From a virus (lineage: Duplodnaviria > Heunggongvirae > Uroviricota > Caudoviricetes): a DNA stretch of 64,000 nucleotides. Below the pieces are notes generated by a model. The model worked only from the letters and a program-made list of their open reading frames with translations. It did no database searches and had not been told where the DNA came from. Below are positions 21,951 through 39,593 of the stretch, in pieces. Within the stretch, counting starts at the first letter, position 1. Each line of letters begins with the position of its first letter. The position numbers and the translations under genes are program-made. Where the stretch lies: IMG/VR virus record IMGVR_UViG_3300027710_000010, positions 235,583 through 299,582 of that record; one strand, given 5' to 3'.

Positions 21951-22343
21951 TTAGATAGCTGTTAGTACGATATAGTTAGCTGATGAATCATCAGTGACTG
22001 CCCACTGATATCTATTGTTGCTGAAATCTCTGCAAGTTCTGTTATACATCTTAGCGATTCTAACAGAAGTACCACCGCCAGTACTTAGATAACCTACGAT
22101 GGACATTTCATTAGCACCTAATGCGCCGGCAGCTTTGTCTACTAGGATACATACACCTTCGTTACCTGTTCCGTTGGCAGCATCGTTTACTTTGAATGTA
22201 CGAACTGATCTCTGTGACAATATGATACCTTGTGCTGATTCTGCGTTAGAACCTACTTGGCAGTTAATTGTAATGTTGTTACCTTCGGTTCCTACTGAAC
22301 CTGCAGTTAAACCGAAATATCTTTTATTAATTGGGCGTCCCAT
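21951..22343 (-). CDS. Hypothetical virion protein downstream of the major capsid gene
   Basis: Start re-called to MGRPINKRYFG (22343) because of a strong TAAGGAG SD; the track's extra 27 codons run through a structured leader. Confidence 0.75.
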   Translation of the reverse strand: MGRPINKRYFGLTAGSVGTEGNNITINCQVGSNAESAQGIILSQRSVRTFKVNDAANGTGNEGVCILVDKAAGALGANEMSIVGYLSTGGGTSVRIAKMYNRTCRDFSNNRYQWAVTDDSSANYIVLTAI

Positions 22344-22426
22344 TTGTTTCTCCTTAATGATTGACGTTCTAGGTCTACGCGGTGGGTAACCGCATAAGTC
22401 TTGCTTTATGCAAGTTCTAGACAAAG
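22344..22426 (-). promoter_or_regulatory. Candidate three-way-junction 5' leader RNA
   Basis: UCUAG/CUAGA closing stem encloses hairpins CUUGC-AUAAA-GCAAG and UUAUGCGGU-UACCC-ACCGCGUAG; lies between TAAATA (22427-22432) and the SD. Confidence 0.55.
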
Positions 22427-33331: not shown

Positions 33332-33338
33332 AATAGTA

Positions 33339-33344
33339 TATTTA
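33339..33344 (-). promoter_or_regulatory. Late promoter motif TAAATA
   Basis: GATAAATA 7 nt before ATG 33331. Confidence 0.6.
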
Positions 33345-33349
33345 TCGTT

Positions 33350-33834
33350 TTGATGTGAGCTAACGCTCACATGTGTTTGCGTTCAGCTAAAGCTTCACTT
33401 AAACACATTTCTTTCAGTTAAAACTATTTAGATGAATTAACTGCGAAGCAGTTTAAATATTATCTAGATTGTTTAGTCACACTTGGCCCTGGCGGGCCAA
33501 AGTTTTGAACATTATCTGAGTTGCATAGTTCACTTAGCGTTATGGCATTACAGAGGCGGTCATCCTGTACCTCGAGCCATGTCTTTATATGACGGCGGTT
33601 TGTGTCGTATACGCTAACATACACACAAACGTAGGGAATACTATCCCTTCATTTAGCCTTTTGAAATTGTCTTTAAACAGCAAAACCAGTTGTACGAAGG
33701 CGTATCTGATCATCGTCCTGTTAAGGATAGTTACTGAGTACTCTTGGCGGCTAGAGTTTTCCGTCCCTCTTATTATCGAGTTGTCATAGGCGTCTGAAAT
33801 TTGCCGACGCTTGCTTATTACCGCTTGTTGTGCC
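33350..33834 (-). ncRNA. Candidate large structured non-coding RNA / origin-like element
   Basis: The only long intergenic gap in the window; at least nine hairpins, two loop-distal complementarities and a thrice-repeated CAA-N3-4-GATAAT motif; not recognised as a known family. Confidence 0.6.
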
Positions 33835-34263
33835 TTAAGATTTTAGTATATGGGAGCCGTGGACGCGAACTTGAATGTGCCCATTGTAGTAGTCGTCGCG
33901 TTCAAGAACTCGTCTTGCGAATTGTTCTCTTGCTTCAACGTATGAGCATTCAGCCTTTGATTTGCAGTAATATAGAATTTCTCTTGAGAAGTTTTCTTGG
34001 CCTAATGTGTCTATGTCTTTTTGAAGATTAGGACTACTTCCGTAGTACTCACGCCAGTCAGAATCTATCTTACTGCGTATCTTCTTTTTCTTCTTTGAGC
34101 CATTCTTTAATTTTACTGTTTTATAAGTAGTCTTTGAGAATTTGGCGAGCTTTTTGCCTATATACTTGCGTCCAGATGTGAGATTAGTTATGAGATAGAC
34201 AAATCCAATACAATCTTCAGGTAATGATTCCACTATTGTATCTTGATAAGTCCATTGCATCAA
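33835..34263 (-). CDS. Stand-alone GIY-YIG nuclease-family protein (Seg-like)
   Basis: 'GFVYLITNLTSGRKYIGKK', 'W..YYGSS', 'FSREIL', conserved Glu (YVEAREQF) and 'YYNG'. Confidence 0.8.
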   Translation of the reverse strand: MMQWTYQDTIVESLPEDCIGFVYLITNLTSGRKYIGKKLAKFSKTTYKTVKLKNGSKKKKKIRSKIDSDWREYYGSSPNLQKDIDTLGQENFSREILYYCKSKAECSYVEAREQFARRVLERDDYYNGHIQVRVHGSHILKS

Positions 34264-34518: not shown

Positions 34519-34906
34519 TTACCCTCTGACGCAGTTCGCTTGTACTAAACGAATGTCTGCGTTTATTAAAATAAAATTCCATGGGCAAATCGTGCCCAGT
34601 AAATTTTTTGTCTTTATATTCTTCGCCTAATATTCTTATATTGATTGGAAATGAAAGCAGGATATCTTGTAGTTCACGTTCACTAGCATAAGGAACAATT
34701 TGATCTACAAATTTGCAGGCTTTTAACTGTGCCCAACGTTCAAATACACCTTGTACAGGTTTGTTTTTAGTGTTGGGTCTGTCAATAGTTGGGTCTGTTT
34801 GCAAACCAACAATTAAAAACTCACATTGTTTCCTTGCTTCTTCCAGCATCATAACATGCCCAGCATGAAACAAATCAAAAGTTGAACAAGTAAATCCTAT
34901 TTTCAT
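34502..34906 (-). CDS. Cytidylyltransferase (TagD/glycerol-3-phosphate CTase-like)
   Basis: 'TFDLFHAGH' HxGH motif, 'LIVGLQTD', 'KP.....ER', 'FSTSELR'. Confidence 0.85.
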   Translation of the reverse strand: MKIGFTCSTFDLFHAGHVMMLEEARKQCEFLIVGLQTDPTIDRPNTKNKPVQGVFERWAQLKACKFVDQIVPYASERELQDILLSFPINIRILGEEYKDKKFTGHDLPMEFYFNKRRHSFSTSELRQRVIDATR

Positions 34907-36681
34907 TCTACAATCTCGATATCATTAGCATAGCTAGTAAAACCATTTTCTTTGATAACTTTTAACACATTATTAACACGGCCAATTAATTCGTCTTTGT
35001 GTGATATCAAGTAAATGTTCTTATCACGTTCACGAGCCATTTTTTTCAATACTGCAAGTGCGCCTTCAACACCACTGGCATCTAATCCATTGTCAATAAG
35101 TTCGTCAATAAACAACAAGTTGATATTTTGATATAAACTTTCCCATACATCTCGGAAACTCCAAGACAATCCTAAAATCAAGCGATTGCGTTCACCACGT
35201 GACAAGTTGTCAAAGTCTAAATCCTGTCCTAACTGTGTAATTTCCACAGTGAGGTCATTTTGGAATACAACTGTATGCGGTAACCCCATGCGGTCAAGAT
35301 AATAAGTTAGACGGTTGTTCAAGTAGGCCAAATTCTGATCAATAATTTTCTTACGAATAAAACTGTCTTTGCTGGTTAGCAATTTTAACAAAAATTCTTG
35401 ATGATCTTTTACTGATGTTAATTCATTAACATGATCCCATGAAATTTCCTGCATAGCAGTATGCTTCAATTCGTCAATTTGTTCTTGATAAGGGTCAGTT
35501 TCTTCAGCACGTTTTACCAACTGATTCTCTAATGTAGTCAAGTTGTTTTGATGCTTTAGTGCTTCTTCAACAGTGTCATAATATGTGTTAGGTCTGCCAT
35601 TAATATCACCGATTACAGACAACTCTGCAACTACTTTAGCCAAGTCAGCAACAACCTTATCGTGATACTTGTTGGCTTCAGTTATGTTAGCATTAGCTGT
35701 GGCAGATAATTCCTCGTGTTTATGGTCATGTAGTGCTTGTTCACAAGCATGGCAAGTCTTGCTATCTAGGGCTAAGAGCTCGCTAGCGTATTTTTTTACG
35801 CTACGCTCTGCTTGTGCCATTGCACTTTCCAGAGTCGCTCGTTCTTTGTTTAAACTTTTTATCTTAGATGCTTGCTCATCGTAGACTTTTAACTTGGCAT
35901 GCTGATCTAGTTCGTTATTAATGTCTACACTTTGTAGTTCATCAATAGCCGCAGTAATTTTATCTAAATCAAGTCGTTGTTGATTGTACCAAGCAGTTTG
36001 TCTAGTTATTAAGCTGTCAACACTTTGTTGAATCTTATCATTAGATTTCTTAGACGCTTCAATGTTAGCACTTTCCTGCGTAATTTCTTCTTTTGTAATA
36101 CGGATCAGTTCTTTAAGTGCTTCGGACTTTTCACTTAACAGTGTAATGCCCAACAACTGCTCGATAATAACACGCTGATCATTCGCTCTCATGCTTAAGA
36201 ACGGCTCAGTGTAAGTGTTGAGCGCAAGGATATGTTTGAACATGTCATGACTCATGCCCAAAAGTTCGTCTAAGTCCTTTTGAGTCTCACGCATGTCGCC
36301 CTGTGCGTCATCACTTTCGTCTGTGTCTTGCTCTACATCGTTAACATAAAATTTAAGAACATTCGGTCGACGACCACGTTCAATCCTATAACTAACTCCG
36401 TCTTTATCAAAACTCAACGTGACCAACATGCCTTTGCCATTGATCTTATTGATTAAATTATCTTTCTTAATGTTAGTCAAAGCAACACCGTACATTGCAT
36501 AACTCAATGCATTAACGATTGTAGTTTTACCCGTGCCGTTACGACTGCCATTGTCATCGCCGCCTTGGTCTAAATTTTCACCCAAGACTAACGTTAAATG
36601 CTGTTTGCCGAAATCAACTGCTTGAGTTTGGTTGCCCACACTCATGAAGTTTTTTACGGTCAAATCTTTAATTTTTATCAT
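34903..36681 (-). CDS. gp46: Recombination exonuclease ATPase subunit (gp46/Rad50/SbcC-like)
   Basis: 'KNFMSVGN', Walker A 'NGTGKTT', CxxC hook 'CHACEQ', signature 'LSRGE', Walker B 'LLFIDE', 'LISH'. Confidence 0.95.
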   Translation of the reverse strand: MIKIKDLTVKNFMSVGNQTQAVDFGKQHLTLVLGENLDQGGDDNGSRNGTGKTTIVNALSYAMYGVALTNIKKDNLINKINGKGMLVTLSFDKDGVSYRIERGRRPNVLKFYVNDVEQDTDESDDAQGDMRETQKDLDELLGMSHDMFKHILALNTYTEPFLSMRANDQRVIIEQLLGITLLSEKSEALKELIRITKEEITQESANIEASKKSNDKIQQSVDSLITRQTAWYNQQRLDLDKITAAIDELQSVDINNELDQHAKLKVYDEQASKIKSLNKERATLESAMAQAERSVKKYASELLALDSKTCHACEQALHDHKHEELSATANANITEANKYHDKVVADLAKVVAELSVIGDINGRPNTYYDTVEEALKHQNNLTTLENQLVKRAEETDPYQEQIDELKHTAMQEISWDHVNELTSVKDHQEFLLKLLTSKDSFIRKKIIDQNLAYLNNRLTYYLDRMGLPHTVVFQNDLTVEITQLGQDLDFDNLSRGERNRLILGLSWSFRDVWESLYQNINLLFIDELIDNGLDASGVEGALAVLKKMARERDKNIYLISHKDELIGRVNNVLKVIKENGFTSYANDIEIVE

Positions 36682-37691
36682 AGGCTATTATAAATTTCCA
36701 GTAGCGTCTTTGCGCTAAATTTGTCACTTTCAATGCTTACAAGCTGATTGCTGACAATTTGGTCAACGCTTTCAAATGCTTGTACATCAATGCTAGTGTT
36801 AATCTCTACATCTTTTTTCTCAGGAATTAACGTCAATTCTCTAATATCGTAATCACCTAAGAATTTTTCTTTAATAAAACTTGCTTCTTCATAACTGATG
36901 TCAATGTCTAGTGTAACACGAAGATGTTGCTTGGGCAAGATTAATGTTTCCGCTTCGTCGATCAGTTGGCTTAATTTTACAGTACGGAACGTGGGTTGTC
37001 CAGGCCAGCTGTGATATTCTGGCTCACCGTCCCACTCTAAAATCATCATGCCACGTTCATCATCCCATGCATCTGCATAGTTGTGCGGAAATGCATTGCC
37101 AATATAAATCATATTGTCTTTTTGTTGACGCTTGTGAAAGTGTCCGCTAAATCCAAGTTCATAAGATTTGAAAGCATCTGCTTTGAGTTCACCATGATCT
37201 GGCATCTGCACCATAGCATTCATAAAAAAGCTAGGCAATTCAAAATGCCCAAAGATATACTTGCCGCCTTTTTTGCCTATTGTTTTCCACTCATCACCTA
37301 CCAGCCACGGACAGAGAGTAACCTGACCAATAGTAGTGGGCTCATGAACAACAGTAATCCCAGGAATATACTTTCCGAACTCGACGGAATGAATATCCCG
37401 TTTATCTTTGTAATATAAATCATGATTGCCAGGGAAAAAGTAAAATTGATCGAAAGCCTTACCCAGCTTTTCCAAGGCCCTAAGACTATAGTCCATAGTA
37501 GTGATATTAAGACTATTGCGATTGTGATGCCAATCCCCCATAAATATTCCAGTATCACACCCTTCCTCCTTTGCTTTTGCAATGTACCAGTCAATGAATT
37601 CTTCACAATCTTTATTGTGAACACTGCTGTTAGATTTTAAACCAAAATGTATGTCTGTAAAACAGGCAACTTTCTTAAAAAGATTACTCAT
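36678..37691 (-). CDS. gp47: Recombination nuclease subunit (gp47/Mre11/SbcD-like)
   Basis: Metallophosphoesterase motifs DIHFG, GDWHH, GNHD, GHFE, SGHFH; start re-called to MSNLFKK, overlapping the upstream stop. Confidence 0.93.
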   Translation of the reverse strand: MSNLFKKVACFTDIHFGLKSNSSVHNKDCEEFIDWYIAKAKEEGCDTGIFMGDWHHNRNSLNITTMDYSLRALEKLGKAFDQFYFFPGNHDLYYKDKRDIHSVEFGKYIPGITVVHEPTTIGQVTLCPWLVGDEWKTIGKKGGKYIFGHFELPSFFMNAMVQMPDHGELKADAFKSYELGFSGHFHKRQQKDNMIYIGNAFPHNYADAWDDERGMMILEWDGEPEYHSWPGQPTFRTVKLSQLIDEAETLILPKQHLRVTLDIDISYEEASFIKEKFLGDYDIRELTLIPEKKDVEINTSIDVQAFESVDQIVSNQLVSIESDKFSAKTLLEIYNSL

Positions 37692-38529
37692 GCGGTGTAC
37701 TCTCGTCAAAACGTTTTATAGCGGCGGCATGCTCTCCGGCGCCAGTCCTACTGTAACTTGGATTCATGCCATTCATTTCCAGCATGTCGTCTCTAATGTT
37801 TTGGTTACGTTTTTCAATGTTGATAATGCGTACAAAACTATTAGTAACTGCCGCTGTAAAGTAGGCAAACGGATTATTACTTTTTGCCTCATTGAATTGC
37901 AAGCCAATTTGAGTTAATTGTAAAATTGCCTGCGCTCGCATTTCATCGTTGTATGTGTAGCCACGAACGTTGCCCCTAGTAGCATATCGTTCACACAGCT
38001 TAATATACATTCGAGCCAATTTATCTGTAATTTGACCGTGGTCTTTGTTGAATTTGCCCTTAGCAACAGTGCCCTGCCAATGGCTCTTTCCCACACAGAT
38101 AAGTTCGTCATTCTCATCAAATTTCCAGTGTTGAAACGGCGGAAAGTTGACCTTATCTCTATGATCTGCTAGGCTTTTTGGATTCTTTTTGCGTGTGCTG
38201 TTAAGCGGAATATGGTCAAACGTCATAATTCTAAAGACCAAATCCAACTTAGTGATCTTTTTGTAGTCTACTTCACAGTCGGCTTGTTTGACTTTTTCGC
38301 CTTCTCTTTTGCGTCTTGCATACTCGGCATCGCCGATGCGTTTGGCTTGATTACGTTTGGCTTCTGCAATAGTGCGTATGTTAATTTTATCTACACTTGG
38401 CAAAATTAAATCATATTGGTGATATTCTGGCTGTGTGTAGCTTGAGTAAGTATTTTTGGACTTGTGTATCTCTTCCAGTAAGTCTTTGTTGTTTAAGTAA
38501 TTTACTTTCGTTGTTGTTGTAATTGTCAT
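37684..38529 (-). CDS. gp55: Late-transcription sigma factor (gp55-like)
   Basis: 'NYLNNKDLL.EI', 'N.RGYTY.DEM', 'F...KS.NPFAYFT......F.R.I..EK'; sits upstream of gp47-gp46 as in T4-like phages. Confidence 0.8.
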   Translation of the reverse strand: MTITTTTKVNYLNNKDLLEEIHKSKNTYSSYTQPEYHQYDLILPSVDKINIRTIAEAKRNQAKRIGDAEYARRKREGEKVKQADCEVDYKKITKLDLVFRIMTFDHIPLNSTRKKNPKSLADHRDKVNFPPFQHWKFDENDELICVGKSHWQGTVAKGKFNKDHGQITDKLARMYIKLCERYATRGNVRGYTYNDEMRAQAILQLTQIGLQFNEAKSNNPFAYFTAAVTNSFVRIINIEKRNQNIRDDMLEMNGMNPSYSRTGAGEHAAAIKRFDESTPHE

Positions 38530-38551
38530 CGATTGGGTCCTATATAGTAAT

Positions 38552-38580
38552 ATTATAAACTACGCACATAATTTTGTCAA
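38552..38580 (-). promoter_or_regulatory. Consensus sigma70 promoter for the gp55-gp47-gp46 operon
   Basis: Minus strand TTGACA (38580-38575), 17-nt spacer, TATAAT (38557-38552). Confidence 0.9.
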
Positions 38581-38581
38581 C

Positions 38582-38587
38582 TAAATA
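38582..38587 (+). promoter_or_regulatory. Late promoter motif TAAATA (baseplate operon)
   Basis: CTAAATA followed by AGGAG SD and ATG 38607. Confidence 0.65.
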
Positions 38588-38606
38588 TAGACATAGGAGA
38601 TAGAAA

Positions 38607-39593
38607 ATGGCAGATTTTAATGTAGCAGGTGCTGTGTCAGGTGTTCAATCTGCGTTAGGTACTGCGGCCGGAGTGTTGAATACTGCGGCTAACCTAGGTG
38701 CGGCGCTTAACAGTAATTTATCGAATCCAGCCAGACTACTCAGCTCAATTCGAAGTATTAACTTACCTGTGGGCGGAGAAGCAATTGGATCAATTATCAA
38801 TGCAGCCGCATCATTTGGCGGTACTGATAATACAGATGACTGGAGAGCAAGACTAAGCATGCCAACTGGCAGTTTCTTTGATAGAAGTCCTATTTTACAG
38901 CCACTAATTAATGCAGGCGGATTAATTTTTCCATACACTCCTACTATCTCAATTAACAGCACTGCTACTTACGGAGAGATTCCAGTAACACATCAGAACT
39001 ATCAATTCCAAGCATATCAAAATAGCAGAGTAAGTGACATTCAAATTACTGGCGAGTTCAACGTTGAAGATGCTGTGCAGGCAAAATACTGGATTGCCGC
39101 AGTACACTTTTTAAGATCAGTGACAAAAATGTTTACAGGTGATACAGCGTTCCAAGGTAATCCTCCTCCAATCTTAAATTTTAGTGCTTACGGTGATCAT
39201 GTGTTTAGAAACGTGCCCGTAGTTGTAAAAAGTTTTAGCATGACACTGCCTAAAGATGTACAGTATATCAGTACAAACGTAGCAGGTGGCGGCGGCGGCC
39301 TTAATGACATTTCACAAACTGCTGGACAACTAGCAGGAGTCGCTGGCGCTTTTGGATTAGGCAGTGCGGCTCAGTCATTGGGGCAGATTGGCGCAGTTGC
39401 TGGCGCTGCCAGCACACTGACTAATTTATTCAGTGGAGTTGCTGGCGGGCAAGGCACACCGAGAGACAGCCATGTGCCCGTCAAGAGTGATTTAACAATT
39501 ACCATAATGCCAATTTACAGTAAAGAAGCTGTAAGACAGTTTAGTCTACAGCGTTTTGTTAACGGTGATTATGTAAGTAGAGGGTATGTATAA
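38607..39593 (+). CDS. Baseplate/tail-tube junction protein (gp48/gp54-like)
   Basis: 'GLIFPYTP.I', 'HFLRSVTKMF', 'GNPPPI..FSAYG..VF..VPVVV.SF'; first gene of the baseplate operon. Confidence 0.55.
   Translation: MADFNVAGAVSGVQSALGTAAGVLNTAANLGAALNSNLSNPARLLSSIRSINLPVGGEAIGSIINAAASFGGTDNTDDWRARLSMPTGSFFDRSPILQPLINAGGLIFPYTPTISINSTATYGEIPVTHQNYQFQAYQNSRVSDIQITGEFNVEDAVQAKYWIAAVHFLRSVTKMFTGDTAFQGNPPPILNFSAYGDHVFRNVPVVVKSFSMTLPKDVQYISTNVAGGGGGLNDISQTAGQLAGVAGAFGLGSAAQSLGQIGAVAGAASTLTNLFSGVAGGQGTPRDSHVPVKSDLTITIMPIYSKEAVRQFSLQRFVNGDYVSRGYV

Follow-up and report, generated by a model that had tools for sequence, protein, structure and literature searches.

A Polynucleobacter-1 RNA with a twin-word 3' tail in a T4-like giant phage

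Comparative genomics of environmental and phage DNA has brought to light pseudoknotted, multi-domain RNAs of several hundred nucleotides (nt), among them GOLLD and ROOL, whose function is unknown. To our knowledge, large RNAs with an intricate fold and no known function are rare, and every such RNA that has been solved to date uncovered new biochemistry. Here, we analyze a conserved, non-coding and strongly folded RNA that spans about 460 nt of the minus strand (33353-33815) in a window of 64,000 nt, which comprises the last 64 kb of the 299,582-base single-contig virus record IMGVR_UViG_3300027710_000010; positions are those of the window unless the genome is named. The RNA lies behind a gene for a small GIY-YIG nuclease and is carried by a T4-like giant phage from a lake. 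It is similar to GOLLD and ROOL in its size, its pseudoknotted domains and its phage setting but has no sequence or model match to them. The best-supported statement about the locus is that it is a stand-alone structured RNA gene, namely the Polynucleobacter-1 RNA in its long form with a new tail.

Relation to Polynucleobacter-1 and other described RNAs

The Polynucleobacter-1 motif was catalogued by Weinberg et al. (2010, Genome Biol 11:R31, PMC2864571) and has been in Rfam since 2010 as a model of 141 positions, with no function or carrier stated as far as the table, alignment and drawing of that paper go. Table 1 there lists it as a likely RNA that is likely cis-regulatory and gives Burkholderiales and fresh water/estuary as taxa. 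In the published Stockholm alignment of 16 sequences, most metagenomic members extend for another ~140 nt, through an AAAGGC stretch, a hairpin with a UUAGCGU loop, a CCGCCGU segment and GGUACCGG..ACCGCC. The second structure line of this alignment pairs the UUAGCGU loop with ACGCUAA, a pairing labelled 'pseudoknot?' in the drawing. A sequence-only reading of the stretch had taken the RNA to be unclassified, which is refuted by cmscan: RF01718 (Polynucleobacter-1) matches the minus strand at 33675-33815 with 85.8 bits against a gathering threshold of 37 (E 7.9e-17). The match spans the whole model (positions 1-141) and is found again when the complete genome is searched. The window RNA furthermore agrees with the extended 2010 form, as it holds both the second domain GGUACCGG..ACCGCC and the UAGCRU/YRCUR pseudoknot. 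Because the 2010 alignment extends through this second domain, the long form of the published motif accounts for the portion of the window from 33815 to about 33534, and since the second structure line already contains it, the UUAGCGU/ACGCUAA pseudoknot has to be regarded as proposed in 2010. The published alignment ends directly after the 3' strand of the pseudoknot and has neither twin words nor a central hairpin nor 3' hairpins; neither a phage context nor a neighboring gene is given in its table, alignment and drawing. New here are the T4-like giant phage as carrier, the 3' tail with its twin words and two sister classes outside Rfam. The motif of 2010 is now the front part of a ~460-nt RNA carried by abundant T4-like lake phages. 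Literature searches on Polynucleobacter-1 yielded nothing beyond Weinberg et al. (2010), and searches on GIY-YIG, structured RNA and phage found no account of this RNA.

At gathering level, RF01718 and RF02980 were the sole families reported by cmscan in the window. Cow-rumen-2 (RF02947) stayed below its threshold (18.9 bits against 66, E 0.85). It resembles the second domain in that a hairpin with a UUAGC loop, CCGCC and a hairpin with a ACAGGAUGACC loop follow each other in the same order, but the outer helix of the alignment contains many non-pairs. We consider it a lead to a possible shared core and not a case of membership. The core pattern of the RNA was estimated to occur in ~2,000 IMG/VR stretches, and 120 loci were obtained from a scan of viral contigs. 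In 8 of 64 parts of the prokaryote genomes, all 120 of the 120 pattern matches fetched proved to be chance matches and no real copy was found, and none of 50,697 records of cultured phages was matched in blastn by the window RNA or by two other classes.

Small nucleases are found next to structured RNAs in several known arrangements. The guide RNAs of RNA-guided nucleases such as IscB (HEARO) and TnpB (omega RNA) have a hypervariable guide at one end, which the window RNA lacks; the neighbor is a SegE-type GIY-YIG protein and no guide-RNA family reaches its Rfam threshold. The absence of hallmarks of these systems noted from the sequence is thus borne out, and the same is true for group I introns, for cmscan lists no intron family, whether at the gathering threshold or with E values of up to 1. 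In a group I intron the nuclease open reading frame (ORF) is located inside the intron within a host gene, whereas here the RNA has the nuclease gene on its 5' side, and the ORFs that flank them are unrelated genes. Seg-type homing endonucleases share the GIY-YIG catalytic domain, but neither their C-terminal DNA-binding extension nor their sporadic presence is seen here. In type III toxin-antitoxin systems, a ToxI-like RNA of tandem ~35-45-nt repeats lies beside the gene for an endoribonuclease of the ToxN/AbiQ family. In the window RNA, by contrast, only the words described below and a (G/A)UGAC box are repeated while the body of ~400 nt is unique, and the neighbor is a GIY-YIG or PD-(D/E)XK protein. 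The adjacency to a minimal nuclease is no evidence here of an RNA-guided enzyme.

Fold of the RNA

The interval between the stop codon of the GIY-YIG gene (33835) and the next ATG (33331) holds no credible gene, as had been read from the sequence, but just unconserved ORFs of 42-66 amino acids. Relative to the window, indels in 92 relatives had lengths of 1 mod 3 in 962 cases, 2 mod 3 in 249 and 0 mod 3 in 93. These lengths rule out a coding reading, and we conclude that the stretch is non-coding. The longest stop-free stretch had a median of 63 codons in any frame and its position was not conserved. In most of 80 viral loci (the best 80 retrieved via the GIY-YIG protein), the stretch behind the gene is 66-84% identical at the nucleotide level. 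The RNA starts ~20 nt past the GIY-YIG stop on the same strand as the gene.

For the structure, we used a structure-blind MAFFT alignment of the window with 33 relatives, on which a pseudoknotted structure of 86 pairs in 20 helices, drawn by hand, was scored. For these pairs, 89.9% of 2,861 cells were paired, compared with 39-43% when the partners were slid by 1-3 columns, and 62 of the 86 showed changes on both sides. The covariation score was 0.376 versus 0.058-0.082 after sliding and 0.166 after shuffling, and none of 500 shuffles attained the observed values. RNAalifold proposed 63 pairs, 42 of them with double changes. The overall fold consists of two pseudoknotted domains, word 1, a hairpin, word 2 and further hairpins.

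Domain 1 (33675..33815, minus strand) comprises helices P1-P6 and a contact of two pairs (33814-13/33804-03). Its helices 1-10 are 78-100% paired and contain compensatory changes; both sides have changed in 5/5 pairs of P1 and in 4/6 pairs of the long-range helix. In the small hairpin of this domain, position 33727 covaries with 33715 in a non-canonical manner (U/C in 68 and C/U in 25 of 93 sequences), and the closing pair, A-C or A-U, seems to change its register along with the type of loop (UUAACA versus GAAA). Domain 2 (33534..33661, minus strand) contains the AAAGGC stretch, a hairpin at 33648-33633, the hairpin at 33630-33598 with the UUAGCGU loop, a helix (33580-76/33546-42) around GAGG/CCUC (33573-70/33556-53), and the two pseudoknot helices 33617-11/33540-34 and 33593-89/33563-59. 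Its delineation is based on the counts for helices 11-16 and on pairs found by mutual information (MI) among 93 distinct sequences.

All eight hairpins proposed in the sequence-only reading match helices that are upheld in the relatives. GCGUC/GACGC was paired in 96.5% of the cells with double changes in 5/5 pairs, CUCU/AGAG in 91.2%, UCC/GGA in 94.9% and GAUCAG/CUGGUU in 99.4%. AGGGA/UCCCU reached 63.1% on the MAFFT alignment with double changes in 5/5 pairs, and the hairpin at 33630-33598 reached 91.2% with 12/12. The values for AUGGC/GCCAU, GAGG/CCUC and UUGGCCC/GGGCCAA were 85.3%, 98.5% and 79.8%, respectively. The two pseudoknots suggested along with the hairpins met different fates. The pairing of UUAGCGU (33617-33611) with ACGCUAA (33540-33534) was 97.9% paired and 7/7 pairs had changed on both sides. 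GCCUU/AAGGC turned out to be weak: the mean longest helix was 3.84 compared to 3.52 (standard deviation 0.08) with shuffled loops, and at least five pairs could be formed in just 24 of 93 sequences. A possible long-range helix GACGG/CCGUC did not hold up either; it shows no covariation, its two sides vary independently and both are taken by better supported helices (33789-88/33762-61 and 33593-89/33563-59). The latter, GUCAU 33593-33589/AUGAC 33563-33559, is an additional covarying pseudoknot helix that had been missed before and is 98.2% paired.

The 3' tail and its twin words

Downstream of domain 2, the RNA continues into a tail on the minus strand that is built around two nearly identical words, which the sequence-only reading had overlooked. 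Word 1 (33511..33521) consists of ACUC followed by seven letters, X7 (AGAUAAU); it is single-stranded and preceded by a GUGAAC box. Word 2 (33459..33469) consists of AUCU followed by the identical X7 and has a GUGUGAC box in front. Between the words stands a central G+C-rich hairpin, UUUGGCCC-GCCA-GGGCCAAG (33482..33501; helices 17-18), which is 79.8% paired, shows compensatory changes and was found in every RNA class seen. Just past word 2 follows the hairpin CUGC-UUC-GCAG (33441..33451; helices 19-20, 66% and 89% paired), compensatory variants of which are visible in the MAFFT alignment. Two 3' hairpins complete the tail. The first, AUGUGUUU...AAACACAU (33408-33371), is visible in the alignment although its pairs were not counted; the second, GUGAGC-GUUA-GCUCAC (33370-33355), is predicted by RNAalifold with 7 pairs that are all compensatory (columns 641-647/652-658). 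An nhmmer profile of the region of the 3' hairpins (33353..33408) matches 136 of 201 sequences. The two hairpins likely mark the end of the transcript or stabilize it.

The words were searched for as ACTC plus X7, followed within 30-140 nt by ATCT plus the same X7. In 177 of 201 sequences X7 was the same in both words, with 17 different X7 sequences, and the 24 misses were mostly loci cut short. In class A, the two copies agree in 92 of 93 sequences. MI analysis of the 93 sequences revealed six pairs of columns at a distance of 52 nt in the window whose covariation is one of identity rather than of complementarity; in one of them A/A occurs 46 times and G/G 46 times with one exception, in another A/A 61 and G/G 32 times. 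The variable word columns have an MI of 0.46-0.99 with their twin and 0.19-0.70 with the next best column. For the four X columns the corresponding values are 0.46-0.93 and 0.19-0.35, and there is no other MI partner in the RNA. On a tree built without the word columns, the word changes at least 39 times (51 times with shuffled labels). Its first letter alone changes 22 times and Watson-Crick covarying columns 8-18 times, so that the change count of the word is of the same order as that of Watson-Crick covarying columns. At the three letters where the words always differ, one pyrimidine stands for another (CUC versus UCU), and because of this one purine-rich strand could pair with both words. 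The spacing from word to word is 47-59 nt with one case of 74 nt. The twin words are the only variable segments of the RNA (17 variants, with ~4 variable positions in class A).

The tail is not restricted to class A. Class B (L015, L027, L040 and L053; L015:3425-3900) has a different 5' body and keeps the GGGGGUACCGG..AACCGCC pseudoknot core, and class C (L001, L004, L035, L055 and L071; L001:3425-3900) has again a different 5' body; both have the tail of word, hairpin and word in common with class A. Classes B and C sit behind an equally conserved GIY-YIG gene, their X7 is, for example, AGATAAT or ACATGAA, and Rfam searches with them stayed empty both at the gathering threshold and with E values of up to 1. 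Polynucleobacter-1 thus belongs with at least two unnamed sister classes that share its tail. The tail common to all classes keeps two short words identical through dozens of independent changes. Such identity covariation between direct repeats within one RNA is unusual and points to a specific and searchable partner that reads both words.

Other roles for the words were considered and rejected. As hairpin loops they gain nothing from their flanks, the longest flanking helix being 5.04 for word 1 against 4.81 after shuffling and 4.12 against 4.52 for word 2; minimum free energy folds of 152 modules were also mutually inconsistent. As promoters or a genome-wide regulatory motif, they would be expressed by A-YYY-AGATAAT-R, which matches the genome at just five places, the two words included; the distance from the GTGAC box to GATAAT is ~10-11 nt, and an X7 such as ACATGAA or ATAGCAG is unlike a -10 box. 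Helical phasing of the words is not in accord with a spacing that runs from 47 to 59 nt.

The nuclease neighbor, the transcript and a proposed partner for the words

The GIY-YIG gene (33835..34263, minus strand) encodes a protein of 142 amino acids with a single SegE-type domain (Pfam PF19835, 117.2 bits, residues 4-130; phrog_447) and is single-copy in the 299,582-base genome. The motifs GFVY, Y.GKK, RE, Y.EA.EQ and YNG are kept in at least 95% of 68 relatives. A Pfam search for a second domain or a DNA-binding extension in the 142-residue protein found none; T4 Seg proteins are ~200 amino acids or longer. The protein is encoded in 584 of 600 scanned stretches. In the best 80 loci it is always present and always at one locus, preceded by gp46 in 69 of them. 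The close association of gene and RNA that had been noticed in the window is confirmed: the tail was present in 66 of 66 loci selected by the protein that had at least 700 nt downstream, with the twin words exact in 64 and with one mismatch in 2. When loci were selected by the RNA, 69 of 120 had the GIY-YIG gene upstream on the same strand, 41 were too short to judge and 10 lacked it. Among these ten, four (L095, L115, L129 and L134) have a gene for a PD-(D/E)XK nuclease in the GIY-YIG slot between gp46 and the RNA, the protein of L129 (~173 amino acids, L129:721-1242 oriented) being PDDEXK_15 (PF24608, 50.2 bits). Other genes precede the RNA in L103, L105, L153 and L158; upstream genes of RNA loci include RNase H-like, MazG-like and ClpP-like ones. 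In L121, a terminator and then a TTGACA-17-TATAAT promoter stand directly ahead of the RNA, and the tenth locus, L150, is a chance pattern match.

Eight of the 69 loci with the gene have an insert of ~800-1,000 nt between gene and RNA (L104, L109, L110, L122, L137, L141, L156 and L157). L062, L069 and L075 also carry an insert, in their case an ORF starting with MTKLDY. The gene family in turn is found in 268 records of cultured phages, mostly of Synechococcus and Prochlorococcus, at less than 60% identity throughout. In the record of P-HM1 it is labelled 'T4-LIKE GC: 213' and mis-named NAD synthetase. Two of these records, Melnitz-3 and P-HM1, were inspected, and neither has an RNA of this kind behind the gene. 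Conversely, a search of the records of five relatives for the GIY-YIG protein gave no match in any of them. Four of the five are fragments that are 14-26% complete and the other is the RNA-bearing genome G001 (302 kb, 85% complete), for which the empty search answer is weak. None of the columns of 68 aligned GIY-YIG proteins tracks the words beyond control level, the top MI being 0.26 (x1) versus 0.20-0.38 for control RNA columns. Identity of the protein to that of the window is 73-86% where gp46 drops to 44%, and the two are uncoupled: L043 has a gp46 of 87% and a GIY-YIG protein of 77% identity, and L072 has 44% and 80%, respectively.

The sequence-only reading had offered the RNA as a possible cofactor or guide of the GIY-YIG protein. 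It finds no support in the occurrence of the family without the RNA in Melnitz-3 and P-HM1, in the RNA behind other genes, in a covariation between protein and words that stays at background level or in the missing match in G001; the cofactor idea is weak. Given the separate promoter in L121, the varied upstream genes, the GIY-YIG family without the RNA and the lack of MI, we regard the RNA as probably independent of the nuclease. The slot behind gp46 is conserved and the gene after the RNA is not (3 of 120 loci selected by the RNA, 2 of 80 selected by the protein), and for this reason the nuclease appears as a regular and possibly exchangeable neighbor. The GIY-YIG gene is probably a neighbor of the RNA and not its partner. 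By analogy with Slx1 and T7 endonuclease I, the small nuclease may be the junction resolvase of the gp46/gp47 module. A genome search for endonuclease VII (PF02945) had no match, and its positive control likewise remained without a match. In L105 and L153, 3-7 tandem copies of a TTAGGCACA-like motif stand directly upstream of the RNA, ~200-330 nt before the core motif, and in class A the GIY-YIG stop is overlapped by one TAAGGCAC/TAGGCTC. A role of the TAGGCAC-type motif at this stop as a phage promoter was rejected, as its 20 matches are scattered over the genome with no pattern; the genome of the window shows no enrichment of the motif.

The sigma-70 promoter that had been noted at 38580 is a perfect consensus (TTGACA-17-TATAAT, 12/12) on the minus strand (38580-38552). 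It heads the minus-strand gene block and is arranged divergently to a plus-strand ORF whose start is at 38607. There is no strong terminator-like site between this promoter and the RNA, and co-transcription of the RNA from this promoter is plausible. In one aquatic metatranscriptome we found four assembled contigs of relatives with 90-95% similarity (share of words 0.12). One of them, of 999 nt, covers a diverged GIY-YIG gene and the RNA as far as about 33397, which is compatible with transcription but no proof of it.

We tentatively favor the explanation that the locus encodes a stand-alone RNA whose body is a scaffold and whose two identical words are a lineage-specific address read twice by one partner. 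Transcription would begin either at the early promoter (38580) or close to the GIY-YIG stop, and the RNA would end at the 3' hairpins, ahead of the late-type promoter of the gene that follows. The structured body would position the two words beside their hairpins and hold out both single-stranded 11-nt words to one outside partner. Both words would be read by a single factor, which would be a dimeric protein or else a nucleic acid in two copies, and because it is the same factor, a change in one word would be tolerated only together with the same change in the other. The word would thereby serve as a lineage-specific address. As an analogy only, lambda-type nut sites consist of boxA and a boxB hairpin, occur twice per phage with the same sequence and differ between related phages. 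They are similar in presenting a single-stranded word beside a hairpin in two copies, but here the copies are 47-59 nt apart inside one RNA and no N-like protein is known.

Several observations weigh against this explanation. No consistent complement of X7 was found within 700 nt upstream or 500 nt downstream, additional copies of the words in the 299,582-base genome were not above chance (three other loose matches), and no phage tRNA had more than nine contiguous bases complementary to the words, with runs at chance level. Word complements elsewhere in the genome likewise occurred as runs at chance level, with one palindrome, ATTATCTAGTAGATAAT, at genome position 227069. The words also exist in the DNA, where iterons, recombination sites or cleavage sites would yield the same identity pattern. 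The sole RNA data are assembled contigs, which are unable to show ends, strand or level. Furthermore, the strong GIY-YIG synteny (66/66 and 69/120) is not explained by a pure neighbor model.

Long structured transcripts are known from replication origins, such as the RNA II pre-primer of ColE1 and the T4 oriF and oriG transcripts. The phage RNA may be a folded transcript of this type that primes leading-strand synthesis, with the template hybrid kept in the A+T-rich stretch after word 2 and the words acting at the DNA level as iterons for an initiator. We consider this unlikely. A structured transcript that possibly ends in an A+T-rich stretch, with hairpins and replication or recombination genes close by, is indeed what ColE1 RNA II and oriF/oriG present, the RNA lies at the end of a block with gp47-like and gp46-like recombination nuclease genes, and identity-covarying direct repeats near hairpins and an A-rich spacer look like iterons. 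The cumulative GC-skew minimum of the genome (~273-274 kb) is 4-5 kb from the RNA (269.0-269.4 kb); it falls, however, on the divergent promoter region at ~38,000-38,600 of the window, where gene orientation flips, and not on the RNA. The continuous drift of the word spacing without helical phasing also speaks against iterons, the window RNA shows no evidence of an RNA I-like antisense partner or an RNase H site, and conserved pseudoknots with near-invariant joining nucleotides appear to exceed what R-loops are known to need. A purely cis-acting end of the early operon, that is, a 3' untranslated region serving as exonuclease block, transcription end or processing platform with no function in trans, is rather unlikely. 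It would fit the start ~20 nt past a stop codon, the two to three stable covarying hairpins at the end, the late-type promoter behind them and the rating of the motif as likely cis-regulatory in Table 1 of PMC2864571. A near-invariant pseudoknotted core of ~280 nt and concerted word changes nevertheless seem more than a stabilizer requires, the RNA of L121 is its own unit with promoter and preceding terminator, and the downstream gene is not conserved.

Two further explanations give the nuclease a part. In one of them, the GIY-YIG protein, or in some phages the PD-(D/E)XK protein in its place, would have the RNA as its cofactor, guide, substrate or antidote, and the twin words would be the sites that are recognized or cleaved. 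The tight synteny, a second unrelated family of small nucleases (PF24608) in the same slot, and a GIY-YIG protein without a DNA-binding domain whose identity stays at 73-86% where that of gp46 drops to 44% argue for it. A precedent comes from Ssn, single-domain GIY-YIG nucleases (CDD cd10448) that recognize the SRM/NTS hairpin motifs, which occur beside their own gene and in tens to hundreds of copies per genome (PMC11893778). The Ssn proteins are similar to the phage protein in being small, lacking a DNA-binding domain and having a hairpin-forming motif next to their gene, as far as this source goes, but the phage protein is SegE-type (PF19835) and its words occur only twice in 299,582 bases. 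We judge a nuclease partnership improbable in view of the protein family that lacks the RNA in both inspected records of cultured phages (Melnitz-3 and P-HM1), the RNA without a nuclease neighbor in L103, L105, L121, L153 and L158, the absent match in G001, the inserts in eight loci and the lack of protein columns that covary with the words above background; words of 11-13 nt with ~4 variable positions in class A would moreover make a poor guide. The RNA gene may instead be a conserved landmark, cut in rival phages, beside which selfish free-standing homing endonuclease genes have settled; the nuclease or its relatives would do the cutting and word changes would be an escape from cleavage. A precedent for a nuclease gene settled beside RNA genes is segB in the tRNA region of T4. 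Although two nuclease families sharing one slot and the uncoupling of GIY-YIG identity from flanking genes (L043, L072) are in line with this, we regard it as very improbable: the gene is single-copy and present at one locus in all 80 best loci, has no DNA-binding extension and is widely conserved in cultured cyanophages, and escape from cleavage alone would not keep two words identical.

A bolder version of the address explanation, which we consider highly doubtful, would have the pseudoknotted body of the whole RNA superfamily present two copies of a lineage-specific word of 11-13 nt as a programmable address. Both words could pair, with G-U wobbles, with one and the same target sequence, and the adjacent small nuclease (GIY-YIG or PD-(D/E)XK) would in this way receive from the RNA a matching nucleic acid, captured in two copies or as both of its strands. 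If true, the phage RNAs would represent a type of RNA-directed recognition that is new and has no relation to CRISPR, OMEGA or bridge RNAs.

The RNA closes a block of minus-strand genes in the order 281-residue ORF, gp47-like phosphoesterase (36678-37709), gp46-like SMC-type ATPase (34903-36681), cytidylyltransferase-like gene, 84-residue ORF, GIY-YIG gene and RNA. A gene for a T4-type baseplate hub follows downstream of the block on the opposite strand. The downstream limit of the RNA element is the motif ATAAATAT (33336..33345, minus strand), 5 nt ahead of the ATG of the next gene (33331). It resembles the T4 late promoter, TATAAATA, and the consensus of the relatives at this site is AAATAAATAT. 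Outside the window, ARAGORN found 40 tRNA genes in the genome, 38 of them in one minus-strand cluster, and one putative permuted tmRNA-like gene; the tRNA and tmRNA regions are at ~51.2-65.9 kb and 95167-95617 of the genome. The window also contains a freshwater-2 RNA (RF02980), an Rfam family of the cis-regulatory class, at 22341-22415 on the minus strand (62.4 bits against a gathering threshold of 49.9).

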